Assembly: GCA_023247255.1 (NCBI GenBank)
Contig: JAHFGV010000005.1
Coordinates: 6,067 to 70,066, forward strand
Direction of reading: 5' to 3'
DNA: 64,000 nucleotides
Source: Candidatus Omnitrophota bacterium
GTDB lineage: Bacteria; Omnitrophota; Gorgyraeia; Aquiviventales; Aquiviventaceae
Shown: in pieces, positions 15,061-45,366 of the stretch
Layout: every line of letters starts with the position of its first letter
How positions within the stretch are numbered: the first letter of the stretch is position 1
The notes under the pieces: model-generated
Databases searched by the model: none
Told to the model about the DNA's origin: nothing
The model's input: only the letters and a program-made list of their open reading frames with translations
Made by a program: the position numbers and the translations under genes

Positions 15061-15131
15061 GCCGTTGACAGGCGTCAAGAAGCAAGGTATCCTTTTTTAT
15101 GGATTATCCAGAAGAAAGGAGGTGCGGTACG

Positions 15132-19139: not shown

Positions 19140-19213
19140 GGGCGGTTAGCTCAGTTGGTTAGAGCGTCTGATTTACATTCAGAAGGTCGGGGGTTCGAGT
19201 CCTCCACCGCCCA
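19140..19213 (+). tRNA. tRNA-Val (anticodon TAC)
   Basis: Manual cloverleaf: acceptor GGGCGGT/ACCGCCC, D arm GCTC-AGTTGGTTA-GAGC, anticodon arm TCTGA-TTTACAT-TCAGA, T arm GGGGG-TTCGAGT-CCTCC. Confidence 0.85.
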
Positions 19214-21134: not shown

Positions 21135-22136
21135 TTGCACAATTGCCCAATTTGTAGCATCCTATCCTTAACGCAGAGGAGGAACAAAGGCATGCTACGA
21201 TTTGCCAAACTCGTGCACCACCCGAGGAAACTCTACAGAATGACGGGACTTACGCTTGACCAGTTCCAGACGCTGACGAATCGGCTCACCCCGCTGTGGG
21301 AGCAAGCGGAACGGATGTGCCTCTCGCAGCGCAAGCGAAAGCCACGCCATCGGGAAAGAGTACCAAGTACAAGCTCTCCACGATGGCGGACAAACTCCTG
21401 TGCGTGCTCAGCTTCTACCGCTTCTACCTCTACCTTTGAGCTGCTCGGCTATCTCGTCGGCCTGGATGCCAGCAATATCTGTCGGCTAAAGCCTCGGCTC
21501 GAACCGCTCATTGAGCAGGCAGCCGATCCAAGCCTGGGGCTGTCGCTCCGCCGTCGGCTCCCGCCCGGCGTCAAGAGAATCGGCACCTGGGAGGAACTCG
21601 TGGAGCGCTGTCCGGACTTCGCAGACGTGGTCACTGATGCGACCAAGCAGGCACGACTCCGTCCACCGCGACGCACCCAGCGGCGCTGGTACTCCGGCAA
21701 ACGTAAGCGCCACACACTCAAGACGCAGTTGAGCATCACTCGGCAGAGTGGCCGGATCCTCCATATCAGTTCAACCGTCCCGGGCCGTGTCCATGACTAC
21801 GCGCTCTTGAAGCGGACGCGACTGGACGAACGGCTGCCGCCGAAGACGCGCCTCACCCTGGATCGGGGGTATGATGGTGCCATGACGGACTATCCGACTC
21901 CCGCTATCGCGCTGCCCGTCAAGCGTCGAGGCAACCACCAGGTCCTGACGCGCTCGGAGCGGGCATTCAACCGCCTCCAGGCGCGGCAGCGGATCATCGT
22001 GGAGCATGTCCCAAGTTGCGTGAAGAAGTACCAGCTCCTCGCGCAGGTCTACCGCCACCGGATCGCGGACTACAACCACCGCTTTCGCAACATTGCGGCC
22101 TTGACGAACTTCCGCCTAACGCCGACGGTGACGTAA
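21135..22136 (+). mobile_element. IS5-family (DDE) transposase gene. The ORF is open, but an approximately 95-nt internal stretch reads in the ancestral frame only when shifted
   Basis: LTLDQF...LWEQAE...RKRK...YSGKRKRHTLK motifs. The conserved KLSTMADKLLCVLSFYRFYL block appears only in an alternate frame around 21345-21435, then returns to TFELLGYLVG. Confidence 0.7.
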
Positions 22137-22178
22137 CCGAACCCGGACGCGCGGAGCCTTCATCGTGTCAAGGGCAAC

Positions 22179-22198
22179 TGCGCAATAGGTCTATTGAA
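22179..22198 (+). repeat. 20-bp direct repeat, copy 1 (tgcgcaataggtctattgaa)
   Basis: Identical 20-mer at 24102-24121. Confidence 0.5.
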
Positions 22199-22278
22199 TT
22201 AGCTCATGTTGAAATGTAGTGGAACTTGTAGTGGCTGAGCTAACGTGAAAGTACAGTTTCGTAGATGAGGAGCTAACC

Positions 22279-22812
22279 GTGAAGAAGCTATCGCTGGCAA
22301 TTAGGCTCATAGCGGTCTTGCTAATTCTTAATGGAGCGGGAAGGGTAGCTGTTGTTGCTTTTGGCCTGGTAGTCTTTTCAAGAGCGATGGAACCAATCGA
22401 GCTATCGCCAGAGTGGGAAAAGGTCTTGAGCAGAACAGTCCAACGGGGCGCGATTTCACCCGAAGAAGCTGTGCAAAGGAGAGAGCAGGCTAAAAAGGTA
22501 CGTGAGCAGCAAGGGGCGTTCCCTGAGTTTAGGTCTTGGGGTGCAGTACAGGTGCTTGCGCTCATAACCAGTTTACTTGGCATGGGGAAGCTGATTGCTG
22601 GTATCGGTATCTTAATGCTGAGGGATTGGGCGCGGACGTTAGCCGTGTGGCAGTCTGGATTGTGGATTGCGTTTAGTTTTTCGTTCCAGTTATTGCTCAG
22701 GGTTTCTCAAAAGTTCCATAATGTTATCCTAGGCCATCAACAAGTAGGCCATACGGTTGGTCAATGGGTCATGTTCTTCTGCTGGGTTATCTTGAATGGC
22801 TACCTCATCTAG
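22279..22812 (+). CDS. Hypothetical 4-TM membrane protein (lower-GC, likely foreign)
   Basis: 177 aa. Flanked by similar 17-20-mers gtgaaagtacagtttcgtag (22243) and gtgaaagcacagtttcaaaag (22832). Confidence 0.45.
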   Translation: MKKLSLAIRLIAVLLILNGAGRVAVVAFGLVVFSRAMEPIELSPEWEKVLSRTVQRGAISPEEAVQRREQAKKVREQQGAFPEFRSWGAVQVLALITSLLGMGKLIAGIGILMLRDWARTLAVWQSGLWIAFSFSFQLLLRVSQKFHNVILGHQQVGHTVGQWVMFFCWVILNGYLI

Positions 22813-22888
22813 CTTTTCCTTCAACCTTCGGTGAAAGCACAGTTTCAAAAGCAAACGTAGCTCGTTTCGTCAGCTTTCACACTTAAAA

Positions 22889-23097
22889 TCACATCCTGCT
22901 CGACACTCCTCCTGACACCGCCACAGGAAATCGGTTAACATCCTTGTCGTACTCAGGTGAGAGATGCGCGTAATGCTCCATCGTAATTCTGGGGTTTGAG
23001 TGTCCCATCCATTTCTGGATTTTGAAAATGCTGACTTCTGCCTGAGCGACTTGGTGGTGAAGCGAAAGAGCTTGACGAATACAATAGAATATAATAC
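22889..23097 (-). pseudogene. C-terminal remnant of a tyrosine recombinase/integrase
   Basis: Minus-strand translation in a frame different from the listed ORF gives LHHQVAQAEVSIFKIQKWMGHSNPRITMEHYAHLSPEYDKDVNRF. This matches the conserved integrase C-terminus including the catalytic HY..Y region. Confidence 0.7.
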
Positions 23098-23123
23098 ATT
23101 ATAGATATATTCAGGAGGCTCCC

Positions 23124-23366
23124 ATGGCAAAAGTGGTCACGGTACGGCTTTCGGAGGAGGACTATCGAAAGATTGCAGCCGTCGCAAAACGTGAGCGGCG
23201 CCCGCTTTCGAACTTTATGACGCTGATGGTGATCAAGGGCATCGAGGAGGGCGATTACGTCGATGCCGTGGAGATGGATCAGATCCTCGCGGACAAGTCT
23301 CTGAGGGCTAAGTTACGGGCAGGGCACTACGACGCCAAGCGACGCAAAGGCAAGCTCGTTGGCTGA
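23124..23366 (+). CDS. Ribbon-helix-helix (CopG/ParD-like) antitoxin
   Basis: 80 aa. VTVRLSEEDYRKIAAVAKRERRPLSNFM RHH motif. Overlaps the toxin start. Confidence 0.7.
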   Translation: MAKVVTVRLSEEDYRKIAAVAKRERRPLSNFMTLMVIKGIEEGDYVDAVEMDQILADKSLRAKLRAGHYDAKRRKGKLVG

Positions 23367-23637
23367 TTTTCGTATCTTCGAGACCTCACAGTTTCAGAAG
23401 GACCTTCAGCAGGACTTCCGAGGGCAACAGGCGCGCATTGAACGCAAGCTCGCCACGTATGTCTATCCCCAGCTGCGAGCGAATTCCTACATCGGGAAGA
23501 ATATCAAGAAACTTCGGGATGCCGTTCCTGAGACCTGGCGGTATCGCATCGGGGATTACCGATTTTTCTACAGGGTCGATGAGCGGCAACGACTCATCTT
23601 TATGCTGACTGCCGACCATCGTGGTCACGCGTATTGA
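23359..23637 (+). CDS. RelE/ParE-family toxin
   Basis: 92 aa. RYRIGDYRFFYRVDERQRLIFMLTADHRGHAY. Confidence 0.75.
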   Translation: MADFRIFETSQFQKDLQQDFRGQQARIERKLATYVYPQLRANSYIGKNIKKLRDAVPETWRYRIGDYRFFYRVDERQRLIFMLTADHRGHAY

Positions 23638-23768
23638 ACGATAACCCTGAAGTGATCAGCTTAACAGTTGACGGCAGGAAAAATCCACGATACCATCATC
23701 CCCTCGACGAGAAGCTGGAAGATTTTCTCTCATTACACACTCCACCTTAAACATTACACAGCTTTTCA

Positions 23769-23842
23769 GGGGGCGTAGCTCAATTGGTTAGAGTGGCGGC
23801 CTGTCGAGCCGTAGGTTGCGGGTTCGAGCCCCGTCGCCCCCG
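23769..23842 (+). tRNA. tRNA-Asp (anticodon GTC)
   Basis: Manual cloverleaf: acceptor GGGGGCG/CGCCCCC, anticodon arm GCGGC-CTGTCGA-GCCGT, T arm GCGGG-TTCGAGC-CCCGT, discriminator G. Confidence 0.85.
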
Positions 23843-23889: not shown

Positions 23890-24068
23890 TCGTCTTCTGG
23901 GATGAAAAAACGTAACCGGGTTGAAGCTGTTTTTATGATGATCCACAGCCAGCTCTTGTACGAAATTCTCAGCCGGTTGATCCATCGGACCGAGAAGTCG
24001 TGGAACGTGTAACCGCAGCGTTTACAGCGGTACCGTTTACCCACGATCCTTTGGTTTTTCAAGCACAC
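23890..24068 (-). pseudogene. N-terminal zinc-ribbon fragment of an IS1595/IS1-InsA-like transposase
   Basis: MCLKNQRIVGKRYRCKRCGYTFHDFSVRWINRLRISYKSWLWII. The remainder of the listed ORF is antisense of tRNA-Asp. Confidence 0.45.
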
Positions 24069-24101
24069 CAGCCGACCGGAGTTTGAGCACAGAAAACTGA
24101 T

Positions 24102-24121
24102 TGCGCAATAGGTCTATTGAA
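24102..24121 (+). repeat. 20-bp direct repeat, copy 2 (tgcgcaataggtctattgaa)
   Basis: Identical to 22179-22198. Confidence 0.5.
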
Positions 24122-24199
24122 GCCCGCGAGAGGGCTGCTCCATTGCGAGTCCTTCTCGTTCTCCTTGACGGTTGTGGCGCGTAGGCGTATTCTTCATGA

Positions 24200-24875
24200 G
24201 ATGGGTGACGAACCAAGAGCCTTCATGGGCCAATTCCTCTCTCGTATGGAGCCTTTCAGACGACTCAGCCAGGCTGAACGGCTACGGCTTGCTGCTGTCG
24301 CCCGTGAGAAACGCTATGACAAAGGCGACACCATCTTCCGCGCAGGTCAGCCAGCCGATGCCGTCTGCGTCGTCAGAGAAGGCCGCGTCCACTTGATGAA
24401 ATTTCTCGAAGGCGGGCAGGCGTCCACGACGTGCGTCATGACGCCCGGGGAAACGTTCTGTTGTCTGCCGGCGCTTGACGGAAAACCGTACCCCGTGGAT
24501 GCCGTCGCTGCAGTGGACTCCACGGTCATTTGCATTCCTACCAGCGCCTTCCATGAGCTCCTGCGCAAGAACCCCGCGTTCCTCCAAGACTCACTCTGCC
24601 TCTTCTGCGATCGGCTGCGCCAGGTCGAGGACAAGAGTTGCATGACCTACGACTCCGTCGAGCGGCGGCTGGCCAAATCACTCCTCATGCTCTCAAAGAA
24701 GTTCGGCCCGACGATTCCGCTGACCAAACAGGAGCTGGCCGAGCTGGCCAATACCACCCAGGAGACCACGATCCGAATTTTAAGCCAACTGAGCAAGCAA
24801 GGGGTGATTCGTTCCGCCCGCGGGAAAACCACGATCCTGCGCCCAGAGAAGCTCTCCGCCTTCCTCGACCCGTAA
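24200..24875 (+). CDS. Crp/Fnr-family transcriptional regulator
   Basis: cNMP-binding-like N-terminal domain. C-terminal HTH LAELANTTQETTIRILSQL. ATG at 24200. Confidence 0.8.
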
Positions 24876-24882
24876 GCCCTTC

Positions 24883-24896
24883 CTGACGGACGTCAT
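24883..24896. promoter_or_regulatory. Palindromic Crp/Fnr-type candidate operator CTGAC-GGAC-GTCAT
   Basis: Directly downstream of the Crp/Fnr gene. Member of a 4-site family. Confidence 0.35.
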
Positions 24897-25043
24897 AGAA
24901 ATCCTCTAGACCGCAAGGTATCGTTGCGGGTAGCCACGTCACAGAGGAGGTGACTCCGTCGGTTTTGCAAGACTACACTCATTGGACGACGAGGAGTTGC
25001 GGAAGCCTCCAAGGGAGATCCCACGCAACTCCATCATAATGAC

Positions 25044-25057
25044 ATGACGTACGTCAT
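25044..25057. promoter_or_regulatory. Palindromic candidate operator ATGAC-GTAC-GTCAT upstream of the hemerythrin-like gene
   Basis: Perfect 14-bp palindrome 41 bp upstream of ATG 25098. Confidence 0.4.
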
Positions 25058-25097
25058 AGAAGGATTCCCTGTTGAGCGCTACAGTTAGATATGAAAG

Positions 25098-25761
25098 GAG
25101 GCGCAGGATGAACGCGGTCGAGCGTCTGCGGCGGGATCACACGATCCTCAGAGCCAAGCTGAGCGTCTTGGAAGGGGCGCTGACCATGGGGTCGGAGACA
25201 TGGTTCGTGCTCCGGGAAATTTGCCACGCGCTCTCTCGCCAGCTCCAGGATCACATCAAACGTGAAGAGGAGCTGGTCACGGCGTGCAAAGAAGCACTGC
25301 CCGACGACGTGCTGGCCCATCTCACCGTCGGGCATAAGGACGAGCCTGCGTTGCTGCGGACGATCAACCGGCTGTTTATCGAGGAGCAGGGGCATTCTCT
25401 TGCGAGCATCAGGCCGTCGTTGACGAGGCTCATTCTCGGCCTGCGTGGTCACATGGACGAAGAGGAGGCCGAGTTGTTCCCGGCGATTGAAGGGGTCCTG
25501 AGCGACCATGAAGCAGCGGAGGTTCAAGAGCCGCTTCCGCCTGTCAGGCTGCGCGAGGAGATGACGGTCAACCATGTACTCCATACTTACCCGCAAACCA
25601 AACCACTCCTTGAACGGCTCTTCATCAACGTTCCGTATGAGGGCTACGACTGCCTAGATGAAGTCGCCTGGAGACGGGGAATGGACTGCTGCCAATTCAT
25701 CGGGCTGCTTGAGGAGGCGATCAGCGTGGCGTACCACTGTGATGAGATCGTAGCAGCATGA
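25098..25761 (+). CDS. Hemerythrin-like domain protein with a ScdA_N/DUF1858-like C-terminal domain
   Basis: RBS aaaggagg. HxxxE-type hemerythrin motifs in the N-terminal half. C-terminal YEGYDCLDEVAWRRGMDC. Confidence 0.55.
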
Positions 25762-25774
25762 GCTCGCTTTTGAC

Positions 25775-25803
25775 TTGACGAACCACGAGCTTGTTAATAA
25801 GAT
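25775..25803 (+). promoter_or_regulatory. Candidate sigma70 promoter (TTGACG - 17 nt - TAAGAT) upstream of hemA
   Basis: Spacing and hexamers read directly. Weak -10. Confidence 0.25.
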
Positions 25804-25848
25804 GAAACACGCGATGGGTCGACAGGGTGTTGTGAGGAGCCGTCCAGC

Positions 25849-26925
25849 GTGAACCTCCTCGTTGTGGGACTCAGTCATCGCACCGCGCCGCTCGAATTGC
25901 GCGAGCTGCTGGCGATCCCGTCACGCGAGTTGCCCGACACACTCGGCGATCTTCATACCCAGTTCGGGATCGATGAAGCGGTGATCCTGTCGACCTGCAA
26001 TCGGGTTGAGATCTACGTCATCACACCAGACCCCTCCGCAACCTCCTACGGCCTCATCGACTTCTTGAGTCATCGAAGCCACGTGGCCCCCGAGGCGTTC
26101 CAATCCCGGATGTATTGCCTAACGGGACCTGACGCGGTGAGACAGCTCTTTGGCGTCACTGCAGGGCTGGATTCGATGGTCCTTGGGGAGTCAGAAATCA
26201 CGGCCCAAGTGAAACAAGCCTATCGGGTGGCACAAACCGAAGAGACAACCGGGCTTGTGCTCCATCGCCTCTTCCAGAAAGCCTTGCACACGGCAAAGGT
26301 CATTCGATCCAAGACACGCTTAGGCTTTGGCCAAGCCTCCATCGGATCAATCGTTGTCGCGCTTGCCAGGAAACTCTTCGAAGGGCAACTTCAAAATTGC
26401 GAAGTCTTGCTTTGGGGAGCCGGAAAGGCGGCGGAATCGACTGCACGGTATCTCATCAAGAACGGGGTGGGCCAGTTGTGGATTGTCAACCGCACACCGC
26501 TCAAAGCGCGGGATCTTGCGACGCTTTGCCAAAGCGGCTGGCTCTCGTGGGAGCAGGCGTTGAAGCACCTCGCCCACGTCGATATTGCCATCGTCTGCAC
26601 CCAAGCGCCGCACTACGTCATCGATCAAGGCGACCTCGATGCGGTTGCGGCTCAGCGCGGCAGCCGCCCCCTGTGTCTCGTTGACCTGGCGGTGCCTCGC
26701 AACGTCGAGCCGTCCCTCGCGCGGCATCCCGGTGTGCGCCTCTACAACATCGATGATCTCCAAACCATTACGCAGGCTGCACAATCGCAGCGTGAACAGG
26801 AACGCGAACGCTCTGACGCGCTCATTCAGGAGCAGGTCAACCATTTCTCTCGTTGGTGGATGGCAGTTTCCCACAAGAAGGAGGATGTTCCATGCCGATC
26901 CGTCGAGGCCTTCTCGTCGGTGTGA
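25849..26925 (+). CDS. hemA: Glutamyl-tRNA reductase
   Basis: GLSHRTAPLELRE...STCNRVEIY...ESEITAQVKQAY. GTG start. Shortish C-terminus overlapping the next gene. Confidence 0.85.
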   Translation: MNLLVVGLSHRTAPLELRELLAIPSRELPDTLGDLHTQFGIDEAVILSTCNRVEIYVITPDPSATSYGLIDFLSHRSHVAPEAFQSRMYCLTGPDAVRQLFGVTAGLDSMVLGESEITAQVKQAYRVAQTEETTGLVLHRLFQKALHTAKVIRSKTRLGFGQASIGSIVVALARKLFEGQLQNCEVLLWGAGKAAESTARYLIKNGVGQLWIVNRTPLKARDLATLCQSGWLSWEQALKHLAHVDIAIVCTQAPHYVIDQGDLDAVAAQRGSRPLCLVDLAVPRNVEPSLARHPGVRLYNIDDLQTITQAAQSQREQERERSDALIQEQVNHFSRWWMAVSHKKEDVPCRSVEAFSSV

Positions 26926-28118
26926 GTCTCGTCGCGGCGCTTACGCTCGGAGAATCAGCGTGGGCAACGATCGAGAACCTCAAAAGCTACAAGGCAGCCT
27001 ATCCCGATAAAGATCCCAAGGCCTATTCGTGCAAGGCCTGCCACGAGGGCCTCATCGGGAAGAAAGACAACCTCAACGCCTATGGTCTCACCTTGCAGAA
27101 GTTCAAAGTGGATGCCGGGGCGAAGAAATTGACCGAAGAAGATTTTCGGGCGTTCGAGGCTGCGGATGCTGATGGGGATGGCGCCTCCAATCTTGATGAG
27201 CTGGACGCGGGCACTGATCTGAATGATCCCACGTCCGTGCCGGAGGGCGCTGGGCAAACGCCAGAAAAAAAAGAAGAAAGCCCAGGCACTGAGCAGCAGA
27301 CAAGCCCTCCAGGCGGCGCGTCGCAACTGAATCCAGGGACACTGAAACAGTTGCAGGCCTACCTGGAGGAGCAGATCGTCCCAGACGTTCAAGCGGCGCC
27401 AGAGGAATCGTCAGTGTCTAGGCGGCATGACGACAAAACAGCGTCCAACGCCAAATCCTCCCAACCCGAACAGGCTGAGTACGTGGGGATGGAGACCTGC
27501 GCGATGTGTCATAACAAGCAGCACCAGGAATTTCTCCACTCAACCCATGCCAGGATCGCAATCCCCGGAGAGACCAAGGCGCAAGGTTGTGAGACCTGTC
27601 ATGGGCCCGGCAGTCTGCACGTTGCTGCCGGTGGCGGTCGTGGCGTCGGTGGGATTATCAATCCGAAGAAGGATCCCGGCGCCTGTTTTGCCTGTCACCT
27701 CGACAAGAAAGCGGAATTTCGTTTGCCCCATCACCATCCCGTGATGGAAGGCAAGATGAGTTGTGCGGATTGCCACAATCCCCACGGTGAGGATGTGCGG
27801 CCGTGGTCAGCGACGACGCTGAAGGATATCAATGAGGCCTGCTTTCGGTGCCACAAGGAACAGCGCGGCCCATTCGCCTGGGAACACGAGGCGCTGCGGG
27901 AAGGTTGCACGACCTGTCACAAGGTTCATGGCTCGATTCACGAGAAGATGCTGCTCGTCCGGGACAACAACTTGTGCCTGCGCTGCCATACGCAGACGAA
28001 CTTCCCGACCATTGGCAGGTCCAGCCATGCTGGCCGGCTTCCCCAAGGGACGTGCTTTAGCGCGGGATGCCATACGGCGGTTCACGGATCGAACTTCGAC
28101 GATCACCTCCGCTACTAA
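26892..28118 (+). CDS. Periplasmic multiheme cytochrome c (about 8-9 CxxCH; MtrA/DmsE-like candidate) with an N-terminal acidic DxDxDG-repeat extension
   Basis: RBS aaggagga. Signal peptide. CxxCH x8 plus CFSAGCH. N-terminal region DADGDGASNLDELDAGTDLNDP. Confidence 0.8.
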   Translation: MPIRRGLLVGVSLVAALTLGESAWATIENLKSYKAAYPDKDPKAYSCKACHEGLIGKKDNLNAYGLTLQKFKVDAGAKKLTEEDFRAFEAADADGDGASNLDELDAGTDLNDPTSVPEGAGQTPEKKEESPGTEQQTSPPGGASQLNPGTLKQLQAYLEEQIVPDVQAAPEESSVSRRHDDKTASNAKSSQPEQAEYVGMETCAMCHNKQHQEFLHSTHARIAIPGETKAQGCETCHGPGSLHVAAGGGRGVGGIINPKKDPGACFACHLDKKAEFRLPHHHPVMEGKMSCADCHNPHGEDVRPWSATTLKDINEACFRCHKEQRGPFAWEHEALREGCTTCHKVHGSIHEKMLLVRDNNLCLRCHTQTNFPTIGRSSHAGRLPQGTCFSAGCHTAVHGSNFDDHLRY

Positions 28119-28130
28119 AGGAGACGCCTC

Positions 28131-30191
28131 ATGCGCGCGATGCTTTGTTGGACGTTGGGAGGAATTCTGGGTGTGAGTCTATGGTTACCCTCACGCCTTG
28201 CTGAGGCTGCGGACCCGGAGGTTTCCCTTTCCCTGGAGCCCATCCGTTATGCGTTCGTCAATGGCGACCGGGATAAGTTTAGCGCCCATCATTGGATGAA
28301 AGACAACTACGTCGGAGGCGTGAAGGAGTTTTCCTTCGACTACGCCCTTGCGGATGGAACGCAGCTCTCCGCAGAAAGCCACGCGCTCATTGATCAAAAC
28401 GATTTGGGCGCTGACGTCTCACTTAAGAAAGACTCACTGGGCTTTTTCAATCTCGGCTACTCCGAATTCCGCAAGTATTACGATAAAACCGGTGGTGTGT
28501 ACTATCCGTTTACCACCCTTCGCAGCAACGATACGTTTAAGGACCTTGCTCTGGACATCGGTCACCTCAGCCTTGAAAGCGGGTTGACCCTGGAAGGCTG
28601 GCCTGACCTGACCTTCGAGTACGAGCGCGAATTCAAGGATGGGGCGAAATCGCGCCTGAGCTGGGTCCCAACGAAGGAAGGGACCACCACCCGGAATATC
28701 GGTCCCTCGTGGCAAGATCTTGATGAGGTCGTCGACTCATTTGGCCTCAAAGCCGATCATGAGATCGCAGGATTCACTCTCAAGGGCGAGCAGCGATGGG
28801 AGTTCGTGCGGACCGAAACCTTTCGGGAGGAGAAATTTCTCGCGACAACAGGTGTCGCAGCAGACACCAAGATTCGACGGCAGGACCAAGCCCCGCAAGC
28901 CACCTTGATGACGACGACGTTAGGCGGGGAGCGTTCGTTCTTCGCTGACAAGATATTTACATCGATGGGCTACCATTTCGCCCACATGGATAATCGGGAA
29001 TTCGAGACAATCGTCGAGTCGAACGCGGCTGGAACCGTAACAAACTTTTCGAATCCGAAGCAGATCCGTAATGCGCGCGCCGATAACGACTACGATACCC
29101 ATACCTGGGTAGGGAACTTCATGATCAACCCCTGGAACTGGCTGAGCCTCGGGACCAAACTCAAGGCTGAAGCGATTCACCGGGAGAGCGACTCAAGCTA
29201 TCCGGCGGATGCCTCGCCGAACTCCACGGGCGGCAGCACCCCGAATGGGGCGATCGACTCTCTCGTGGCCAGTCTCAACAAGAACAAGGCCGTTCGCTGG
29301 GGGGAAGGAGTGTCCCTGCGGTTTTTTGGCATCCCACGCACCGCTCTCTACACTGATTTGGAGTTGGAGCAATCGCGAGTAATCTTGGCAGAGGATCGGA
29401 AAGATTTAGTGACGATCCCGAATGTCAACGAGGATTTCAGCCGCTACACTGTCACCAACGTCCGACGAGGGACGTGGACATTGGGCGGCCATGTCGCGCC
29501 GGGGTCGTTCCTCGATCTGACGACGCAGGTCCGGCGACGTGTCAACAACAACGACTACGATGACCAACGGGAAACCGTCGCCTCAGGGACGGCGCTGTCC
29601 GCATTCGTCGATATGCAGAACATCCATACGGATGAGTTCACCACGCGGGCCACGCTGCGGCCCTCTCGGTGGTTTCGCCCCTCGTTCCGGTACCAGTTCC
29701 GTAACGATAAATATGCGACTCGGACGGAAGCGCAGGATACCGTAAAGACGGGTATGCTCTCGAACATCTACACTTTTGACGTAACGGCACAACCGTTGCG
29801 AGACCTCACGACCACCGCCTCCTTCTCGCGTCAGACGGCCGTCACCACCACTCCCGCGGGTTCGGCGTCGTCAGCAAACGTTCCTGGGTTTCGCGCAAAT
29901 GTCAACACGTGGCTTTTCAGCACCGACTACAGCCCAAGGGCGAATGTGAGTATCACCAACGCGCTGCTCTATTCGCGCGCAAGAAACTTCAACGATTTTA
30001 CCGCCAGCGGGATGCCGTTCGGGACCTCGTTTGATCGGCTGGATGTGACCACAGGTCTGAAGTGGGCGCTGACCGAGGATACGTCTGTTGGCACCGAATA
30101 CGCATTCTACTCGTATCTGCCCAATTCGCTGACCGAAGTGGGCGACTACCATGCCCACGTCATCTGGCTCGAGTTGTCGAAGCAGTTTTGA
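28131..30191 (+). CDS. Large outer-membrane beta-barrel protein (candidate MtrB/PioB-type porin partner of the upstream cytochrome)
   Basis: 686 aa. Signal peptide. Alternating amphipathic beta-strand pattern. C-terminal aromatic residue (..LELSKQF). Confidence 0.55.
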   Translation: MRAMLCWTLGGILGVSLWLPSRLAEAADPEVSLSLEPIRYAFVNGDRDKFSAHHWMKDNYVGGVKEFSFDYALADGTQLSAESHALIDQNDLGADVSLKKDSLGFFNLGYSEFRKYYDKTGGVYYPFTTLRSNDTFKDLALDIGHLSLESGLTLEGWPDLTFEYEREFKDGAKSRLSWVPTKEGTTTRNIGPSWQDLDEVVDSFGLKADHEIAGFTLKGEQRWEFVRTETFREEKFLATTGVAADTKIRRQDQAPQATLMTTTLGGERSFFADKIFTSMGYHFAHMDNREFETIVESNAAGTVTNFSNPKQIRNARADNDYDTHTWVGNFMINPWNWLSLGTKLKAEAIHRESDSSYPADASPNSTGGSTPNGAIDSLVASLNKNKAVRWGEGVSLRFFGIPRTALYTDLELEQSRVILAEDRKDLVTIPNVNEDFSRYTVTNVRRGTWTLGGHVAPGSFLDLTTQVRRRVNNNDYDDQRETVASGTALSAFVDMQNIHTDEFTTRATLRPSRWFRPSFRYQFRNDKYATRTEAQDTVKTGMLSNIYTFDVTAQPLRDLTTTASFSRQTAVTTTPAGSASSANVPGFRANVNTWLFSTDYSPRANVSITNALLYSRARNFNDFTASGMPFGTSFDRLDVTTGLKWALTEDTSVGTEYAFYSYLPNSLTEVGDYHAHVIWLELSKQF

Positions 30192-30634
30192 TGTGTCCTC
30201 GTCAGCCCCTCAGTCGCCGGGTTTTCCTGGCGCTTTGCCTCAGGGGTGGTGGGCTTGCCCTGCTTGGGGCTGCGCTCTATCCCATCCTGCGGTATCTCTA
30301 TCCTCCCCGAGGCGTTGAATCCTCCGTCTCCAGCGTTGCGGCGGCGAAGGTGGGGGATCTGGCGACGAATACCGCGAAGATCTTCCGGTTCGGCAGTCGG
30401 CCCGGCCTCCTCATTCGTTCCCCCCAAGGCGAGCTCAAAGCCTTCTCGGCGGTGTGCACCCACCTCAACTGCACCGTTCAGTACGACAGCGACGCGAGCA
30501 TCATCTGGTGCGCCTGCCACAACGGCAAGTATGACTTAAACGGACAGGTCATCTCCGGCCCTCCCCCACGACCACTCGATGCCTACCAGGTGAACGTCCG
30601 CGGAGAAGACATCATCGTCTCCAAGACGTCCTAG
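30191..30634 (+). CDS. Rieske [2Fe-2S] protein with a Tat signal
   Basis: RRVFLAL twin-arginine motif. CTHLNC...CACHNG Rieske boxes. TGATG overlap with the porin stop. Confidence 0.8.
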   Translation: MCPRQPLSRRVFLALCLRGGGLALLGAALYPILRYLYPPRGVESSVSSVAAAKVGDLATNTAKIFRFGSRPGLLIRSPQGELKAFSAVCTHLNCTVQYDSDASIIWCACHNGKYDLNGQVISGPPPRPLDAYQVNVRGEDIIVSKTS

Positions 30635-30638
30635 CCTG

Positions 30639-31709
30639 ATGGGGTACTTCGAGCACCTACGCGCATTCTTGCATGAGCGCTACCGGCTGGGTGGCCTAGT
30701 GGATCTCGCCACGCATAAGACGGTCCCCATCCACCGCCACAGCGTCTGGTACTACTGGGGCGGCATGACGCTCGTGCTCATCGGCATCCAGATCATCAGC
30801 GGTGTGCTGCTGTTGCTGTACTACCGCCCATCAGCCCAGGAAGCCTTCGAGTCGGTTCGCTTCCTCATGACGCGGGTGCAATTCGGGTGGCTGGTGCGCT
30901 CCGTGCACGCGTGGGCGGCGAACCTGGCGATCTTCTGCGCGATGGTGCATCTGGCCAGCGTCTTTTTCCTGAAGGCGTATCGGCCACCCCGTGAACTGAC
31001 CTGGGTGACCGGGGTTGTGTTGTTGTTTCTGCTATTTGGTTTCGGATTTACCGGCTACCTCCTGCCGTGGAATACGCTGGCGTTTTTCGCCACCAAGGTC
31101 GGCACGGAAATCGCGGGGATTGTGCCCGTCGTCGGGCCTGTCGTTCAAATCTTTCTGCGCGGTGGAAGCGACGTTGGGGATGTGACGATCACGCGGTTCT
31201 TTTGGCTTCATGTCGCAATCCTGCCAATCGGCCTGATGACACTCTTAAGCCTTCATCTGCTCATGATCCAGCTCCAGGGCATGAGCAAACCGCCTTGGGT
31301 TAAGAGCAATCGGTCCATGCCGTTCTTTCCGAATTTTTTCCTGCGCGATCTGGTTGCCTGGTCACTCATACTGGGGATAGTGCTGTGTGTGAGCGTGCAC
31401 TGGCCCGCGACGCTCGGCGAAAAGGCCGATCCGTTCGCTCCGACACCCGTGGGCATCCAACCGGAATGGTATTTTCTCTGGATGTTTCAGACGCTCAAGA
31501 TTTTCCCTGGCCACCTGTTTGGTCTCGAGGGTGAGTTAGTCGCGGTGGGATTGACCGGACTGGCGGGTCTTGCGCTGCTACTCGTTCCATGGCTGGATCG
31601 CCCCGCCCGACGGGAGCAATCATCCTGGCTGGTATGGGCTGTTGGCGTGTTGGGCATTGCCTATGTCGTCGGGATGACCGGCTACGCGCTATGGGTGAAA
31701 CCTCACTGA
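30639..31709 (+). CDS. Cytochrome b (b6-type with fused subunit IV-like C-terminus) of a bc-type complex
   Basis: 356 aa. YYWGGMTLVLIGIQIISGVLL, His-containing TM helices. PEWY-like motif (QPEWYFLW). Confidence 0.85.
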   Translation: MGYFEHLRAFLHERYRLGGLVDLATHKTVPIHRHSVWYYWGGMTLVLIGIQIISGVLLLLYYRPSAQEAFESVRFLMTRVQFGWLVRSVHAWAANLAIFCAMVHLASVFFLKAYRPPRELTWVTGVVLLFLLFGFGFTGYLLPWNTLAFFATKVGTEIAGIVPVVGPVVQIFLRGGSDVGDVTITRFFWLHVAILPIGLMTLLSLHLLMIQLQGMSKPPWVKSNRSMPFFPNFFLRDLVAWSLILGIVLCVSVHWPATLGEKADPFAPTPVGIQPEWYFLWMFQTLKIFPGHLFGLEGELVAVGLTGLAGLALLLVPWLDRPARREQSSWLVWAVGVLGIAYVVGMTGYALWVKPH

Positions 31710-32995
31710 TGACAGGGTATCGTCTACGGGTGGCACTCGGACTTCTGCTGTGCCCTGGCTTTGTGTGGTCGGCTGAGAAGCCGAATAGTTGTGTCGAGTG
31801 CCACAAGCAGGTGGAGGGCCAAACGCGAGGGCCGGCCACACTGGCTGCAGAGGACGTGCATTTCCAGCGAGGCTTGTCCTGCGTGGATTGCCATGGCGGC
31901 GATCCAACAGCGATGGATCCTCAAGCCGCGATGGACCCGGCTAAAGGGTTCCTCGGTCGCCCGAGGCGGGAGCAGATTCCCCAGTTTTGCGCCCGGTGCC
32001 ACGCGGATCCGGCCACCATGCGCAAGTACAATCCCAATCTTCCGACTGACCAATACGCGAAGTACCTGACCAGTCAGCACGGGAAGCGCTTCAGTGTTGG
32101 CGATGCCGATGTGCCGGTCTGCATCAGTTGCCACGAGGCGCACGGCATCCGCTCGAAAAAAGACCCAGCCTCGCCGGTCTACCCGACGAACATCCCCGGA
32201 ACCTGCGCGAGCTGCCACAGCGACGCGTCGATCATGGACAAACACGGCTTGCCGGTGAACCAGCACTGGGACTACTCGCAGAGCGTCCACGGCCAGGCGC
32301 TGTTGTTCCGTGGCGATCGTGCGGCTCCCCATTGCGCGAGCTGCCACGGATCGCACGAAGCGGCCAAACCTAGGACGGTCGCAATCGGCAACGTCTGCGC
32401 TCAGTGCCATAGCCTCACGCGCGATCTGTTTGCAAAGAGTCCCCACAAGGCCGCGCATGAAGCCTTAGGGCTTCCGGAGTGCGAGGTCTGCCACGGCAAT
32501 CACCTGATCCGCAAGCCAAGCGACGAGATGCTTGGGACGGGACAAGATGCGGTGTGTGTCAGTTGTCACGAGCCAGGGTCGACCGGCTACGTCACCGCGC
32601 AGCAGATGCGCAGCGCCATCGAGCAACTGAAAACCCACATGGCCAGCGCTGAGGCAGCCGTCAGGCACGCAGCGGAGTTGGGCATGGATGTCGGTGACGC
32701 GGAATTTGAGCTTCGCGAGGCGATGACCCAACTCACGCAAGAGCGCACCTACGTCCACTCTTTCTCCGCCGCAACCATGGAACCCATTGCCGAGGAGGGA
32801 ACTCACCACGCCCTGCGGGCCGAGGGGCAAGCCCGCCAGGCGATCCGTGAGTTTCATTTCCGCCGTCAGGGCTTGTGGGTCACCCTGATCATTCTCGCCC
32901 TCGTGGTTTCTGGACTCCTTCTGAAGATTCGAGACTTGGAGCGATCGGACTCGACAGACAAGATGGACGACACATCCCCTCGCGACTCCTCGTAA
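31709..32995 (+). CDS. Multiheme cytochrome c (about 9 CxxCH) with a C-terminal TM anchor; third subunit of the bc complex
   Basis: ATG overlaps the cyt b stop (TGATG). CVECH, CVDCH, CARCH, CISCH, CASCH x2, CAQCH, CEVCH, CVSCH. C-terminal hydrophobic helix. Confidence 0.8.
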   Translation: MTGYRLRVALGLLLCPGFVWSAEKPNSCVECHKQVEGQTRGPATLAAEDVHFQRGLSCVDCHGGDPTAMDPQAAMDPAKGFLGRPRREQIPQFCARCHADPATMRKYNPNLPTDQYAKYLTSQHGKRFSVGDADVPVCISCHEAHGIRSKKDPASPVYPTNIPGTCASCHSDASIMDKHGLPVNQHWDYSQSVHGQALLFRGDRAAPHCASCHGSHEAAKPRTVAIGNVCAQCHSLTRDLFAKSPHKAAHEALGLPECEVCHGNHLIRKPSDEMLGTGQDAVCVSCHEPGSTGYVTAQQMRSAIEQLKTHMASAEAAVRHAAELGMDVGDAEFELREAMTQLTQERTYVHSFSAATMEPIAEEGTHHALRAEGQARQAIREFHFRRQGLWVTLIILALVVSGLLLKIRDLERSDSTDKMDDTSPRDSS

Positions 32996-33032
32996 AATCT
33001 GCCATTTCCGGCTATGATATCTGCGGAGCATC

Positions 33033-34550
33033 ATGAACCACACATCGATGCCAAAACCCCCCAGCCTCTTGCGCAACCCGCTGAGCTTTTTCGGCCTCGC
33101 CGTCGCCATCACGAGCACGGCGTTTGGCCTGCCCATGATGTTCGTCGACATGTTCAGTCGACGCACGCATCCGTATCTTGCTGTGCTCGTTTATCTCGTG
33201 CTGCCGTTCGTTGCAGCAGGCGGCGTCGGCTTAGTCCTGCTTGGAGCATTGTGGGAACGCCGTCGAAGACGCCGACGGCCTGGCATGGTAGTGCCACCCC
33301 TGCCATCCATCGATCTCAATCGAAGCGCCCACCAGATTGCTGTGGCTGGAGCACTCACAACGTTCATGACTATTGTGGCCATGCTCTCCGTGACCGGCTA
33401 CCGGGCGTACCACTTTACGGAGTCGGTCAAATTCTGCGGCCTGGTCTGTCACCAGGTGATGAAACCGGAGTATACGGCGTATCAGTATTCTCCGCATGCG
33501 CGCGTGGCCTGCACCCAGTGCCATGTCGGGCCTGGTGCAAGCTGGTTCGTGCGCTCAAAGATCACAGGAGCGTATCAGGTTTACGCGGTTACATTCAACA
33601 AGTACCCGCGCCCGATTCCCACACCCGTGAAGAGCCTGCGTCCGGCGCAAGAAACTTGCGAGCAATGCCACTGGCCGGCGAAGTTTTTTGGCGCGCAGCA
33701 GAAAACCTTCACGCACTACATGGCGGATGAGCACAACAGCCCGTGGCAGATTCAGATGCTGCTGAAAATCGGCGGCGGCGATCCGTCGGTTGGCGCTCCT
33801 GCGGGCATTCACTGGCACATGAACATCAAGAACGATATTTATTACATTGCCTCAGATGAGCAGCGGGAAACCATTCCGTGGGTGCGCGTGGTCGAGCCGC
33901 AGGGACGCATCGCCGAATATATGTCGATGGAAAGTCCGCTCTCGCCGGAGCAGATCGTAAAGAGCGAAGTGCGCCGCATGGACTGCGTGGATTGCCACAA
34001 CCGGCCCTCCCACATCTTTCGACCGCCGGATCGTGCGGTGGAGGAGGCCTTCGAGACCGGCCGGCTAGAGCGGTCCCTGCCGTATCTGAAGCGCGAAGCC
34101 ATAAGGTTGTTGGCGCAAGAGTACCCCTCGGAGGAGCAGGCGTTATCAGCCATCCTGAAAGGCTTGGCCGAGTTCTACCAGAAGGACTATCCAGAGGTGT
34201 ATCGCGAACAGGCAGTCGCTATTCAACAGGCCACAGCTGAGTTGCAACGCATCTATTCGAGGAATTTCTTTCCCGAGATGCGCGCCGATTGGCGCGCCCA
34301 TCCCAACCACATGGGCCATCTAAATGCCGAAGGCTGCTTCCGCTGCCACGATGGGCTGCACAAAAACCGCGAGGGCAAGGTGCTAACCAAAGACTGTACC
34401 GCCTGTCACACGATCTTGGCCCAGGGGCCACCTGAGGAGGTGGCGCAAGCCAAGCTTGAAGCGCAGCCGTTTCGCCACCCGGTCGACGTGGGGATGGACG
34501 TGACGGAATTTAAGTGCAGCCAGTGTCATACCGGCACGAGCGGTCTCTAG
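33033..34550 (+). CDS. Membrane-anchored heptaheme cytochrome c of the NapC/NirT/ImcH-like type
   Basis: 505 aa. 2-3 N-terminal TM helices. Seven CxxCH motifs. Size and architecture resemble the Geobacter inner-membrane cytochrome ImcH. Confidence 0.6.
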   Translation: MNHTSMPKPPSLLRNPLSFFGLAVAITSTAFGLPMMFVDMFSRRTHPYLAVLVYLVLPFVAAGGVGLVLLGALWERRRRRRRPGMVVPPLPSIDLNRSAHQIAVAGALTTFMTIVAMLSVTGYRAYHFTESVKFCGLVCHQVMKPEYTAYQYSPHARVACTQCHVGPGASWFVRSKITGAYQVYAVTFNKYPRPIPTPVKSLRPAQETCEQCHWPAKFFGAQQKTFTHYMADEHNSPWQIQMLLKIGGGDPSVGAPAGIHWHMNIKNDIYYIASDEQRETIPWVRVVEPQGRIAEYMSMESPLSPEQIVKSEVRRMDCVDCHNRPSHIFRPPDRAVEEAFETGRLERSLPYLKREAIRLLAQEYPSEEQALSAILKGLAEFYQKDYPEVYREQAVAIQQATAELQRIYSRNFFPEMRADWRAHPNHMGHLNAEGCFRCHDGLHKNREGKVLTKDCTACHTILAQGPPEEVAQAKLEAQPFRHPVDVGMDVTEFKCSQCHTGTSGL

Positions 34551-34627
34551 GCCTGCCCGCCTGTCGTCCAAAAGTGTGATCTGGGTCATAGTTCGTCTCC
34601 CTGCGTTCTGAGAAGATTACTTAGGCG

Positions 34628-36183
34628 ATGGGGGAGGCTCTGACGAGAAACGGCGGACGGATACGGCGCGTAGCGCTCTGCGCGCTCTTCACGTGCTGGA
34701 CCTGGGCGCCGCGGGCCATGGGAGAGGGCAGCGTCTCTCCAGCCGCGCAAGAGATCGACAACGCTGCCTGTCTGGCTTGCCATGGTGATCCCTCGGCAAT
34801 CCGCTTTGTGGACCACGCGAAGTTCGAGGCTTCCGTCCATGGGAGTTTTTCCTGCACTACCTGCCACGCGGATGTCGTCACCATTCCCCATGACGTGCCG
34901 CTGGAGTCGATCAGTCAGTCGCAGATCCCCCTCACGTGCGGCCAGTGCCATGAAGACATCAAGGCTGCCTACCAGCGGAGTATCCACGCTCAGGCGGTCG
35001 CCGCCGGCAAGCGCCATGCGCCCGTCTGCACCGACTGCCATGGTGAGCACTATGTGGCCCCGGTGAAAACGGAGGCGTCGAAAGTGTTTCCCTCGCACAT
35101 CCCGCAGACGTGCGCACAGTGCCACGCGGCGGAGCGCATCGTTACGAAGTATCGGTTGCCGGCGTACGTGGTCGATACGTACATGAGCAGCTTCCACGGC
35201 CTCATACACCAACTGGGATCCGTGACGGCCGCGAACTGCGCCTCCTGCCACGGGGCGCATGACATTCTCCCCGCGAACGACGAGCGTTCCTCGGTCAATC
35301 CGAAGAACCTGCCGAAAACCTGTGGCTCCTGCCATCCGGGCGTCGGCGCGTTCGTCGCACAGGGAAAGATTCACTCCGGCACACAGCCCGGAGCGGAACA
35401 TCCTGCGGTGACATTCGTTCGCCGGTTCTACCTCATCCTCATCGGTTTGGTCATTGGGGGCATGCTGATTCACAACGGTCTCGATTTCCGCAAAAAACTC
35501 TCGATCCATTACCAACGGATGGCCGCCAGCAGCGCGGTACAACGGATGAGTCTTAATGAGCGCCTTCAACATGGCGTGCTCTTGATCGCCTTTGCGACGC
35601 TCGCCTATACCGGATTTGCGTTAAAGTTCCCGCATGTCTGGTGGGCACGCCCCTTCATGGGCCGCGTCGACTGGCGCCGCCTGGGGCATCGGGGAGCGGC
35701 GGTCGTCTTCTGCCTGCTCGCCGGCTACCACCTCTGGTTCATGACGTGCACGAAACGGGGGCGGAGCGAGTTGCGCGCCTTGCGACCCGAACGAGCCGAC
35801 TTCACGCACCTGAGACGGATGCTCGGCTTCTATCTGGGTAGGAGCCGGGAGCAGCCGCGCGCGGCGCGGTACAGCTACGTGGAGAAAGCGGAGTATTGGG
35901 CGCGGTCTGGGGTTCAGTCATCATGGTGCTCACCGGCGGTCTGATGACCTGGCAGAATTGGACATTGCGCTTCCTGCCCAAGTGGGCGTTCGATGTTTTT
36001 ATCACGGTGCATTTTTATGAAGCACTCCTCGCATGCTTGGCGATCCTTATTTGGCACCTCTACTTCGTCATGTACGATCCCGATGAATACCCGATGAAGT
36101 GGACGTGGATCAGCGGCAAGGCCTCACCCACCGACGAGGCACATCGGCATCCAGGCGACGCCGAGGAAGGCAATCCAGGCTGA
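34628..36183 (+). CDS. Multiheme cytochrome c (7 CxxCH) fused to a diheme b-type membrane cytochrome domain (CbcL-like); apparent +/-1 frameshift near 35895-35945
   Basis: ORF 34628..35944 continues as ORF 35896..36183 in another frame. The C-terminal half has 4 TM helices with conserved His (formate dehydrogenase-gamma / Ni-Fe hydrogenase cyt b-like). Confidence 0.6.
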
Positions 36184-36269
36184 ATCCTCTAAGACTTAAC
36201 GCCGTGTTGGCGCAAAAACATACCTCGGAGGCGCAAACGTCCTCTGTATGATAAAATAGAAACCTTGCC

Positions 36270-39709: not shown

Positions 39710-39820
39710 CGTTCTCGCCTTCTTCCCTAAGGGATCATGCGCCCAAGGAATTCTCATCTCCTCTTTATCCTTGACCTCCTCTACGGCACATCTTAGTTGT
39801 CCAGCCGACAAAAGGTCTCC

Positions 39821-39834
39821 ATGACGTTCGTCAT
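39821..39834. promoter_or_regulatory. Palindromic candidate operator ATGAC-GTTC-GTCAT (extended CCATGAC..GTCATGGAAGA)
   Basis: Same family as 25044 and 43309. Confidence 0.35.
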
Positions 39835-39927
39835 GGAAGACTCTTATCCGGAGCCGCTATCCTCTTTTTCATGACACATCCGTGAATCACGGCTACAAAT
39901 GGCCGACTTGCTGACGATAAGGTCGTT

Positions 39928-39962
39928 TCTCACAAAGTTCACACCCTGTGAACATTGTGAGA
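39928..39962. promoter_or_regulatory. 16-3-16 inverted repeat TCTCACAAAGTTCACA-ccc-TGTGAACATTGTGAGA upstream of feoB
   Basis: Near-perfect palindrome, one mismatch. Confidence 0.3.
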
Positions 39963-40157: not shown

Positions 40158-40213
40158 GACTCATGAAACAGACGTGAGCACTGCCACTAACCTCGATGCA
40201 TTTTGTAAAACCC
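40158..40213 (+). repeat. 55-bp dispersed repeat, copy 2 (see 2645-2699), immediately upstream of feoB
   Basis: Near-identical to copy 1. Confidence 0.6.
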
Positions 40214-45365: not shown

Positions 45366-45366
45366 C

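Follow-up and report, generated by a model that had tools for sequence, protein, structure and literature searches.

Palindromic boxes next to a cysteine-rich Crp/Fnr regulator gene mark predicted class II promoters in a Candidatus Omnitrophota genome

Introduction

Among the closest described counterparts of the system reported here is the FNR regulon of Escherichia coli. FNR activates feoABC, narGHJI and the moa operon, the last of which also has a molybdenum cofactor (Moco) riboswitch, from sites at -41.5. The Glu and Arg of the CRP/FNR recognition helix read the TGA core of the site, and Ser212 of FNR reads the outer T of TTGAT. Crp/Fnr regulators are also arranged in cascades, from Anr to Dnr and from FixLJ through FixK2 to NnrR. 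This study concerns a 64-kb stretch of DNA from a Candidatus Omnitrophota bacterium (contig JAHFGV010000005.1; G+C = 57.9%), hereafter called the window, and a family of short palindromes found in it near a gene for a Crp/Fnr-type regulator, which we refer to as crp1.

The predicted HcpR1 regulons form a second group for comparison. Hemerythrin-like genes, cytochrome c-like genes and nar are frequent members of these regulons, and absence of the CRP Arg180 equivalent correlates with T, not G, at position 3 of the box (Rodionov 2005, PMC1274295).

An earlier note on the window had described four palindromes and suggested that one Crp/Fnr-type redox regulator controls haem synthesis, a cytochrome cluster, iron uptake and a molybdoenzyme together. 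We find that the palindromes are probably the operator halves of activator-dependent class II sigma-70 promoters, which would be served by a Crp/Fnr-family regulator and would form a regulon within the window. The idea of co-regulation is supported by the FNR geometry, by adjacency to the Crp/Fnr gene in relatives and by the class II position, while the list of sites, the reading of an extended form and the narrow scope had to be revised.

Results

Palindromes in the window

Three exact copies of the 14-mer ATGACNNNNGTCAT are found in the window, at 25044, 39821 and 43309. The expected number is 0.10, and none of 100 dinucleotide shuffles reached three. The fourth palindrome listed earlier, at 24883, is inexact and reads CTGACGGACGTCAT. 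It has a single mismatch to the 14-mer, yet its core of 12 nucleotides (nt), TGAC-N4-GTCA, is intact. The core is present six times with 1.05 expected, and the copies beyond the four in the earlier note are at 53170 and 15066. The copy at 15066 was rejected as a family member; it is located inside a TTGACA-17-TATCCT consensus promoter and is without the TAGA flank described below. This segment (15065-15100, TTGACAGGCGTCAA), in which a palindrome core is contained within a consensus promoter, is situated between the ATP-synthase gamma and beta genes.

The palindromes at 24883 and 25044 had been said to flank the Crp/Fnr gene. Both are 3' of the gene (24225-24875), within the 232-bp spacer that precedes a hemerythrin gene. 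The sites at 39821 and 43309 do share the form CCATGAC..GTCATGGAAGA; its GGAAGA, previously taken for an extension of the palindrome, is the -35 slot of a composite promoter.

Anatomy of the composite promoters

Related DNA was gathered around crp or dtxR genes throughout. There were 556 matches to crp1, many of them 72-88% identical. Scanning one genome per species produced 42 loci with 50-82% protein identity, all from metagenome-assembled genomes (MAGs), many of which are from groundwater and most of which were deposited as Candidatus Omnitrophota or as uncultured Planctomycetales/Planctomycetia. A metagenome scan with the DtxR/FeoA protein produced 5 loci, 2 of which are syntenic and informative. 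Individual loci are designated with L numbers.

When all TGAC-N4-GTCA cores from the window and the loci were compared, conservation of the flanks was one-sided. On that side TA(G/C)A comes directly after the core, with TAnnnT about 17 nt further on. TAnnnT is located 21-24 nt 3' of the core in 29 of about 42 distinct cores, and the orientation is identical in 29/29. A matrix scan then identified the half-sites as TGAY and RTCA. The family is broader than the ATGAC-N4-GTCAT given earlier and is better written as TGAY-N4-RTCA, with C/G, T/A and hybrid boxes sharing flank and spacing.

In 636 kb from 41 related MAG loci the matrix selected 91 composite sites with the order TGAY-N4-RTCA, T(A/G)GA in the -35 slot, 16-18 nt, and TAnnnT. 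Counting the 6-nt -35 slot, 23 nt separate the box from the -10 element in 70/91 sites. The slot has T at 89, A at 80, G at 64 and A at 69 of the 91 sites, followed by A or C and then by any base. As T(A/G)GA(A/C)n it agrees with TTGACA at approximately 3/6 positions. The half-sites co-vary: symmetric C/G (29) and T/A (27) boxes outnumber the two types of hybrids (15 and 11; Fisher p=0.001). From the palindrome centre to the last base of the -10 element the distance is about 35 nt, which puts the centre about 41.5 nt upstream of the predicted transcription start. With the start so predicted, this would be the classic class II position of Crp/Fnr activators.

A matrix trained on relatives only (58 sites, window excluded) gave 8 matches scoring at least 13 in the window, against a mean of 0.023 in 300 shuffles. 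The matrix-found window sites are all intergenic, and the one at 53170 overlaps a stop codon.

Six boxes with predicted promoters were identified in the window, all on the plus strand, and the inner base is C/G in 5/6 of them. Box A (24883-24924; matrix score 36.3) has the core TGACGGACGTCA at 24884-24895, a -35 slot of TAGAAA, a -10 of TATCGT at 24919-24924 and a predicted start near 24931. Box B (25044-25085; ATGACGTACGTCAT; matrix score 31.3), with a -35 slot of TAGAAG, a -10 of TACAGT at 25080-25085 and a predicted start near 25092, is the predicted promoter of the hemerythrin operon. Box C (39821-39863; ATGACGTTCGTCAT; matrix score 25.1) has TGGAAG in the -35 slot, TATCCT at 39858-39863 and a predicted start near 39870. 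The same slot, TGGAAG, is found in box D (43309-43351; ATGACTCCCGTCAT; matrix score 20.6), with a -10 of TAGGCT at 43346-43351 and a predicted start near 43358. Box E (53169-53210; ATGACGCGCGTCAG; matrix score 16.1) was absent from the earlier list; its -10 is TAGGGT at 53205-53210, its predicted start is near 53217, and the relatives-only matrix also matched it in reverse orientation with a score of 18.8. Box F (63285-63325; TGATCTCCATCA; matrix score 20.5), upstream of pdxH, has TGGAAG in the -35 slot, TATTAT at 63320-63325 and a predicted start near 63332, and is a canonical FNR-like variant of the TGAT-N4-ATCA type.

Two weaker candidates were noted. A possible internal box between two multihaem cytochrome genes (34577-34588, plus strand; TGATCTGGGTCA; matrix score 16.8) owes its score to the operator part (20.5), the -10 part being poor (-3.7). 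A speculative box on the minus strand (62470-62481; TGACCGCGATCA; matrix score 9.4) is 91 nt upstream of a fatty-acid desaturase gene.

Predicted transcription starts and gene starts

A greedy open reading frame (ORF) caller was dropped (93% called coding), and distances to gene starts were compared with those of random positions instead. A bounded gene start was found at +39 to +130 for 54/91 sites; random positions gave 12.4, with a maximum of 22. The earlier note had proposed such a check of position relative to gene starts along with a genome-wide motif scan; the count here covers loci gathered around crp/dtxR genes and so addresses genome-wide enrichment in part.

Sixty-three downstream ORFs start with ATG and encode at least 150 amino acids (aa). 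In seventeen of them the ATG is 40-44 nt away from the centre of the palindrome, most often 41 nt. The ATGs of these 17 fall 6-7 nt after the -10 element, so their mRNAs would be leaderless. Targets of this type include crp2 (a second Crp paralogue, described below) in several lineages, a gene for an AhbC/NirJ-like radical SAM protein, the phosphoenolpyruvate carboxykinase (PEPCK) gene and genes for GGDEF proteins. In the window, only 11 nt separate the predicted start of box E from the beginning of a Moco riboswitch.

Position 43309 had been placed at the start of a helix-turn-helix (HTH) gene. Homologues define a 72-aa protein that begins at 43363, leaving box D in the position of a promoter. 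The L003 orthologue has 72 aa and begins 48 nt from the box centre, and the L045 orthologue begins 49 nt from it. In the three HTH upstream regions (window, L003 and L045) only the arms of box D and its -10 element are conserved; spacer and flanks diverge, with indels that are not multiples of three. From the starts of the homologues and the non-triplet indels, the window HTH gene starts at 43363 and box D would be its promoter, with a leader of about 5 nt.

The regulator crp1

The crp1 gene (24225-24875, plus strand) encodes a Crp/Fnr-superfamily regulator of 216 aa that is 100% identical to protein P0001, annotated from 24225. Pfam recognizes a cNMP_binding domain (PF00027, E=4.3e-21) and an HTH_Crp_2 domain (PF13545, E=1.4e-16). 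The gene has a promoter, TTGACG-17-TATTCT (24165-24193, plus strand), which is the sole consensus promoter in 24000-25200 and is palindrome-free. In a sigma-70 consensus scan the box promoters all failed and the crp1 promoter passed. A consensus, box-free promoter for crp1 together with box promoters that fail the scan fits activator dependence of the latter.

The recognition helix of crp1 is TTQETTIR. The family form is TT(Q/V/H)ET(T/A)IR, in which Glu and Arg are invariant in 31 homologues. The helix keeps the equivalents of CRP E181 and R185 and is without an equivalent of CRP Arg180. Crp1 has Ile where FNR has Ser212, and the outer base of the boxes here is A or C.

Crp1 is rich in cysteines. 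Among homologues L001-L042, down to 36% identity, C70, C79 and C80 never vary, and C128 and C139 are nearly invariant. There is no Cys among the first 47 residues. An AlphaFold model (pLDDT 76.7, moderate confidence) consists of a beta-roll and a C-helix. In the model C79 and C80 are at the helix of the phosphate-binding cassette and C125 and C128 are on the C-helix, lining the equivalent of the CRP nucleotide pocket. The top Foldseek matches were all Crp/Fnr proteins, with 21-28% identity to solved structures, and nothing beyond the generic Crp/Fnr fold was recognized.

Crp1 belongs to the Crp/Fnr superfamily. It failed all of the NCBIfam equivalog cut-offs, scoring 53.7/300 bits for FixK, 37.8/228 for Fnr (PRK11161), 46.2/266 for CRP and 40.9/245 for NtcA. 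Since crp1 has neither the Cys cluster nor the score nor the E--SR motif and box that define FNR, it is outside FNR proper. By these sequence comparisons it appears to belong to a Cys-rich subfamily, neither FNR nor FixK, that has no earlier description; in the literature on the lineage, the subfamily, its regulon and the regulators of nxr we found none. Judging from the model, a metal, Fe-S or thiol sensor in crp1 is plausible.

The region before crp1 (21135-23842) looks plastic. It contains a DDE_Tnp_4 transposase gene (21135-22136) and an RHH antitoxin/ParE toxin pair (23124-23637). There are tRNA genes at 19140-19213 and 23769-23842.

Relatives and loss of crp2

The order crp1, hemerythrin, hemA, multihaem cytochrome, unknown, cytochrome b and multihaem cytochrome is conserved in relatives. 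The composite is usually found directly behind the orthologous Crp/Fnr gene, and at least 12 of the 42 loci have a box 13-96 bp past the stop codon of crp1. Most relatives have an additional gene, crp2, placed after crp1 and before the hemerythrin gene. Crp2 shares 35-40% identity with crp1 and retains just C79 of the conserved crp1 cysteines. No second Crp paralogue is present in the window.

With 86-88% identity, window positions 24884-24959 match the promoter and leader of crp2 in L049 and L001. The similarity breaks off at the crp2 ATG, which makes box A the orphaned promoter of a deleted crp2. By this homology box A is the relic promoter and leader of a crp2 gene deleted in the window lineage. 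L048, from another sample, has an identical crp1 with the same neighbors and is crp2-less too. A contig assembled from run SRR14366787 contains crp1 with these neighbors. Box A stands in tandem 161 bp upstream of box B, with no terminator between them.

Hemerythrin-domain genes are the most frequent targets in the loci (21 sites), followed by crp2 (about 16), AhbC/NirJ-like radical SAM genes (5), PEPCK genes of ATP and GTP types (5) and VIT1 iron transporter genes (3); hemA, ResB, MobA and PAS-GGDEF genes were also found. The nxr operon has a box in the window, L045, L003, L041 and L033. The syntenic locus L045 has kept the boxes of both feoB and HTH-tatA-nxr, with conservation limited to the arms and the -10 element.

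A shared leader, approximately GGAAGGAAGYGGCAGGCGCGnGAAAC, is present after box promoters in L003 (5590-5640), L008 (13455-13500), L021 (3195-3240) and L012 (8955-9000). In L003 and L012 it precedes a gene for a VIT1-family iron transporter. An Rfam search with the VIT1-type leaders produced nothing significant. The leader in these four loci could be a novel cis-regulatory RNA.

Genes downstream of the boxes

Genes in the window were assigned with Pfam and are on the plus strand unless stated otherwise. The earlier note named three targets, which stand as predictions: the hemerythrin-hemA-cytochrome cluster, feoB and HTH-tatA-nxr. Its list was too narrow, missing the Moco riboswitch with the moa operon, and pdxH.

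The same-strand cluster downstream of box B (25108-39709) contains genes for a hemerythrin-domain protein (25108-25761; Pfam and NCBIfam, with weak similarity to RIC), hemA (from 25849), a multihaem cytochrome c, a 686-aa unknown protein, a Rieske protein, cytochrome b, three multihaem cytochromes, ResB and CcsA. The order of the cluster is kept in L014, L015, L016, L022 and L023. We infer that all 14.6 kb are transcribed together. Within the cluster, the Rieske (30062-30634) and cytochrome b (30639-31709) genes are surrounded by four multihaem cytochrome c genes and the gene for the 686-aa protein, which has no Pfam match. This arrangement (26892-35944), whose order is kept in relatives, recalls the Rieske/cytochrome b complexes of anammox bacteria.

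Box C is located in the 486-bp spacer between ccsA and feoB (39710-40195), which is followed by feoB (40196-42250) and a gene for a DtxR/FeoA-fusion regulator (42547-43254). The spacer carries a box in L045/L046 too, and the spacer itself cannot be aligned with that of L045. Control of feoB would act through a leader of about 326 nt. This predicted leader (39870-40195) has a minimum free energy of -113 kcal/mol, against -98 ± 4.8 for shuffles (z = -3.15), and forms a long hairpin at approximately 39925-39965. Rfam had no match in it. The same slot in L045 contains a 111-aa Cys-rich ORF without a Pfam match, and this ORF is missing in the window. The feoB leader may be a cis-regulatory RNA of a new type or a decayed gene. 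In L045 and L046 short tandem-like repeats of GACAAG/GGGACAAG are present directly upstream of the feoB box (L045 3325-3420, minus-strand view).

Downstream of box D are genes for the 72-aa HTH_3 protein (43363-43581; start taken from homologues), tatA (43587-43760), an NxrC-like cytochrome c/EB_dh protein (43767-45365), an NxrA-like protein (45197-48820; start uncertain), a DUF2490 protein, an NxrB-like protein (49819-51057) and a NarJ-like chaperone (51088-51867). The DUF2490 gene is between the NxrA-like and NxrB-like genes. A ferredoxin-like ORF is found at 52729-53172.

Box E is followed by the Moco riboswitch aptamer (53228-53385; Rfam RF01055, 61.6 bits with a gathering score of 36). 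The genes moaA, moaC, mog/moaB-like, methyltransferase, TauE, moeA and mobB (53889-59172) come next, with tatC and mobA 3' of the moa cluster. Approximately 500 nt separate the riboswitch from moaA (53889), with only a doubtful 93-aa ORF (53451-53732) between them.

Box F is upstream of pdxH (63341-63988; Pfam PNPOx). FNR-like boxes are thus found 5' of two O2-dependent enzymes, at 63256-63340 for pdxH and, with the weak box, at 62385-62499 for the fatty-acid desaturase (61233-62384, minus strand). These two boxes hint that the signal is O2, or that both genes are repressed and not activated.

Discussion

A proposed regulon

The computation shows the motif with its anatomy and conservation, where it is located relative to genes, and to which family the regulator belongs. 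From these results the following mechanism can be proposed. A Crp/Fnr-family dimer would bind (A)TGAY-N4-RTCA(T) centred about 41.5 bp upstream of the start, abutting the -35 slot, which is degenerate and reads T(A/G)GAAn. Once bound, the dimer would recruit RNA polymerase to a TAnnnT -10 element 16-18 bp onward. The sole candidate regulator in the window is the adjacent Cys-rich crp1, presumably expressed from its own box-free consensus promoter. Its predicted targets are the cluster of hemerythrin, hemA, Rieske/cytochrome b, multihaem cytochrome and cytochrome biogenesis genes, feoB, HTH-tatA-nxrCAB, the Moco riboswitch with moa, and pdxH. In most relatives crp1 would also drive crp2; the deletion in the window would have left box A as a tandem promoter before box B. 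The signal is probably O2, nitric oxide (NO) or redox state, perceived via the conserved cysteines. We infer activation rather than repression, the binding paralogue and the signal, as well as a single regulator for all of the boxes that senses redox state.

Several points weigh against this proposal. The placement at -41.5 depends on predicted -10 elements and leaderless ATGs. The loci were collected around crp genes, so the enrichment applies to those loci. Box C is about 326 nt from feoB, so its control may be indirect or exerted on another product. Conservation of a promoter-proximal TAGA has, to our knowledge, no precedent among FNR promoters. Finally, as crp1 and crp2 coexist in most relatives and their ETxIR helices are alike, the boxes could be bound by crp2 or by a paralogue encoded outside the window, and the co-variation of C/G and T/A could reflect two regulators with different preferences.

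Alternative explanations

The last of these points leads to the alternative that survives best, although we consider it fairly unlikely. The boxes would be bound by another Crp/Fnr regulator, either of the crp2 type or encoded outside the window, and crp1 would be at the top of a cascade or have other targets. In most relatives the crp2 gene separates crp1 from the hemerythrin gene, and crp2 has a similar helix, (R/T)xE(T/S)xIR; both facts are consistent with this idea, as is the predominance of symmetric boxes of both types over hybrids. In addition, the hemerythrin boxes of the closest crp2-bearing relatives are T-type or hybrid (L001 TGATCTGTATCA, L049 TGATCTGCGTCA) and that of the crp2-less window is perfect C/G TGACGTACGTCA, a pattern that hints at a preference of crp1 for C/G and of crp2 for T/A. 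Across loci, however, box types are not sorted by target gene or by type of crp2 helix, and the half-site correlation is partly driven by low-GC lineages. Moreover, the window has lost crp2 cleanly and has no other Crp paralogue, yet six good boxes remain, five of them C/G-type.

It is quite improbable that the palindrome is the operator of a repressor, whether a Crp/Fnr protein or another dimeric HTH protein such as the XRE-type protein encoded at 43363. A protein bound to the box, which abuts the -35 slot, could occlude sigma region 4, and an anaerobic regulator might repress both pdxH and the desaturase, which are O2-dependent. On the other hand, every site has a degenerate -35 slot and the box promoters failed the consensus scan, whereas promoters under repression tend to be strong. 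The spacing is fixed at the equivalent of -41.5, the hallmark of class II activation, and the XRE gene is missing from most of the loci that have boxes.

We give hardly any credence to nucleic-acid hairpins, that is, terminators or attenuators after crp1 and ccsA, or RNA-stability elements. The palindrome at 24883 is 8 nt past the crp1 stop, that at 53170 overlaps a stop, and a terminator scan flagged the 39821 palindrome on the minus strand. The coding strand, in contrast, has no T-run after the palindromes. Base pairing is not kept, as the C…A arm combination is found in 15/91 sites and hybrids in 26/91. The conserved flank and -10 element are one-sided and at a fixed distance, and the predicted starts are 3' of the palindrome, so a promoter of this kind would not transcribe its own palindrome.

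Chance matches or shared coding sequence, the latter with 39821 and 43309 as homologous N-termini (M-T-x-V-M-E-E/D) that both open with ATG and encode similar pentapeptides, are just as implausible and are refuted by an ORF of just 25 codons at 39821, by HTH homologues that start at the equivalent of 43363 with upstream indels that are not multiples of three, and by the shuffle statistics (3 against 0.10 for the 14-mer and 8 against 0.023 for matrix matches).

Implications

Operator halves of class II promoters remain our preferred explanation of the palindromes. A bolder version of it is tentative, and we would sooner doubt it than accept it. Crp1 may found a new sensor branch of the Crp/Fnr superfamily, with a metal or Fe-S centre or a thiol switch in the former cyclic-nucleotide pocket, built from C70, C79 and C80 at the phosphate-binding cassette and C128 and C139 at the C-helix and hinge. 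It would head a crp1-to-crp2 cascade that, in uncultured groundwater Planctomycetota/'Omnitrophota', switches on nitrite oxidoreductase (nxr), the supply of Moco and haem for it, and iron uptake through largely leaderless transcripts, and loss of crp2 would have been offset by conversion of the hemerythrin box to the C/G form preferred by crp1. The cluster of FNR is at the N-terminus and that of Bacillus Fnr is at the C-terminus; the proposed pocket site differs from both.

For an uncultured groundwater lineage without genetics, the analysis provides a predicted map of how a periplasmic NXR-type molybdoenzyme and the functions that support it are regulated. One candidate sensor-regulator and six predicted promoters, each with a start placed to the base, make up the map. 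Export by Tat, synthesis of Moco (behind a riboswitch) and of haem, maturation of cytochrome c, a Rieske/cytochrome b complex and uptake of Fe2+ are the supporting functions on it. The matrix could be used on MAGs and metatranscriptomes to predict when nitrite/nitrate respiration is switched on, and the Cys-rich sensor domain is a candidate for a new design of redox or O2/NO sensors based on the Crp fold. In kind, this would be a standard FNR-type regulon that extends existing ideas and overturns none. Three of its features are less usual: the Cys-rich pocket, the proposed crp1-to-crp2 cascade with the loss of crp2 in the window lineage, and a TAGA flank that is conserved, together with many targets predicted to be leaderless.

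Comparison with known systems

The boxes have the same 5-4-5 inverted repeat and TGA…TCA core as the class II sites of E. coli FNR (TTGAT-N4-ATCAA at -41.5), and the site at 63285 is literally TGAT-N4-ATCA. As in E. coli, a poor -35 element directly adjoins the box, and about 41.5 bp separate the box centre from the inferred start. The regulons are also alike in content, with feoB, a moa operon with a Moco riboswitch and a Nar/Nxr-type molybdoenzyme. They differ in the outer base, which is A or C here (ATGAY) and T in FNR (TTGAT), giving (A/C)TGAY-N4-RTCAT as the box. Crp1 is without the N-terminal Cys cluster of FNR (C20, C23 and C29, with C122), and its helix has ETTIR where FNR has ETISR. 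Conservation of the TAGA flank and the many transcripts predicted to be leaderless also set this system apart from FNR.

The core TGAC-N4-GTCA is identical to that of the HcpR1 box (wyTTGACnnnnGTCAArw). The outer T/A positions of the HcpR1 box are replaced here by A/T, the opposite order. HcpR1, like crp1, has no equivalent of CRP Arg180 and keeps Glu181. The host lineages differ, and Porphyromonas gingivalis HcpR, an HcpR2-type protein with a structure in the PDB, is 19% identical to crp1. We noticed neither hcp nor frdX beside any box, although no systematic search was made for either gene.

The boxes of FixK2, Anr/Dnr and NnrR are FNR-like and tolerate an inner C or T, as is the case here. 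The box in the crp2 promoter at about 16 loci resembles the cascades of the Anr/Dnr type. Matches of crp1 by structure and sequence include DNR and FixK2, and FixK gave the best NCBIfam score, with its 53.7 bits still set against a cut-off of 300. The C70/C79/C80 and C128/C139 pattern of crp1 is absent from regulators of the FixK2, Anr/Dnr and NnrR types. Taken together, these likenesses suggest a system that works by class II activation in the manner of FNR, FixK and Dnr, with a core that matches the predicted HcpR1 box.

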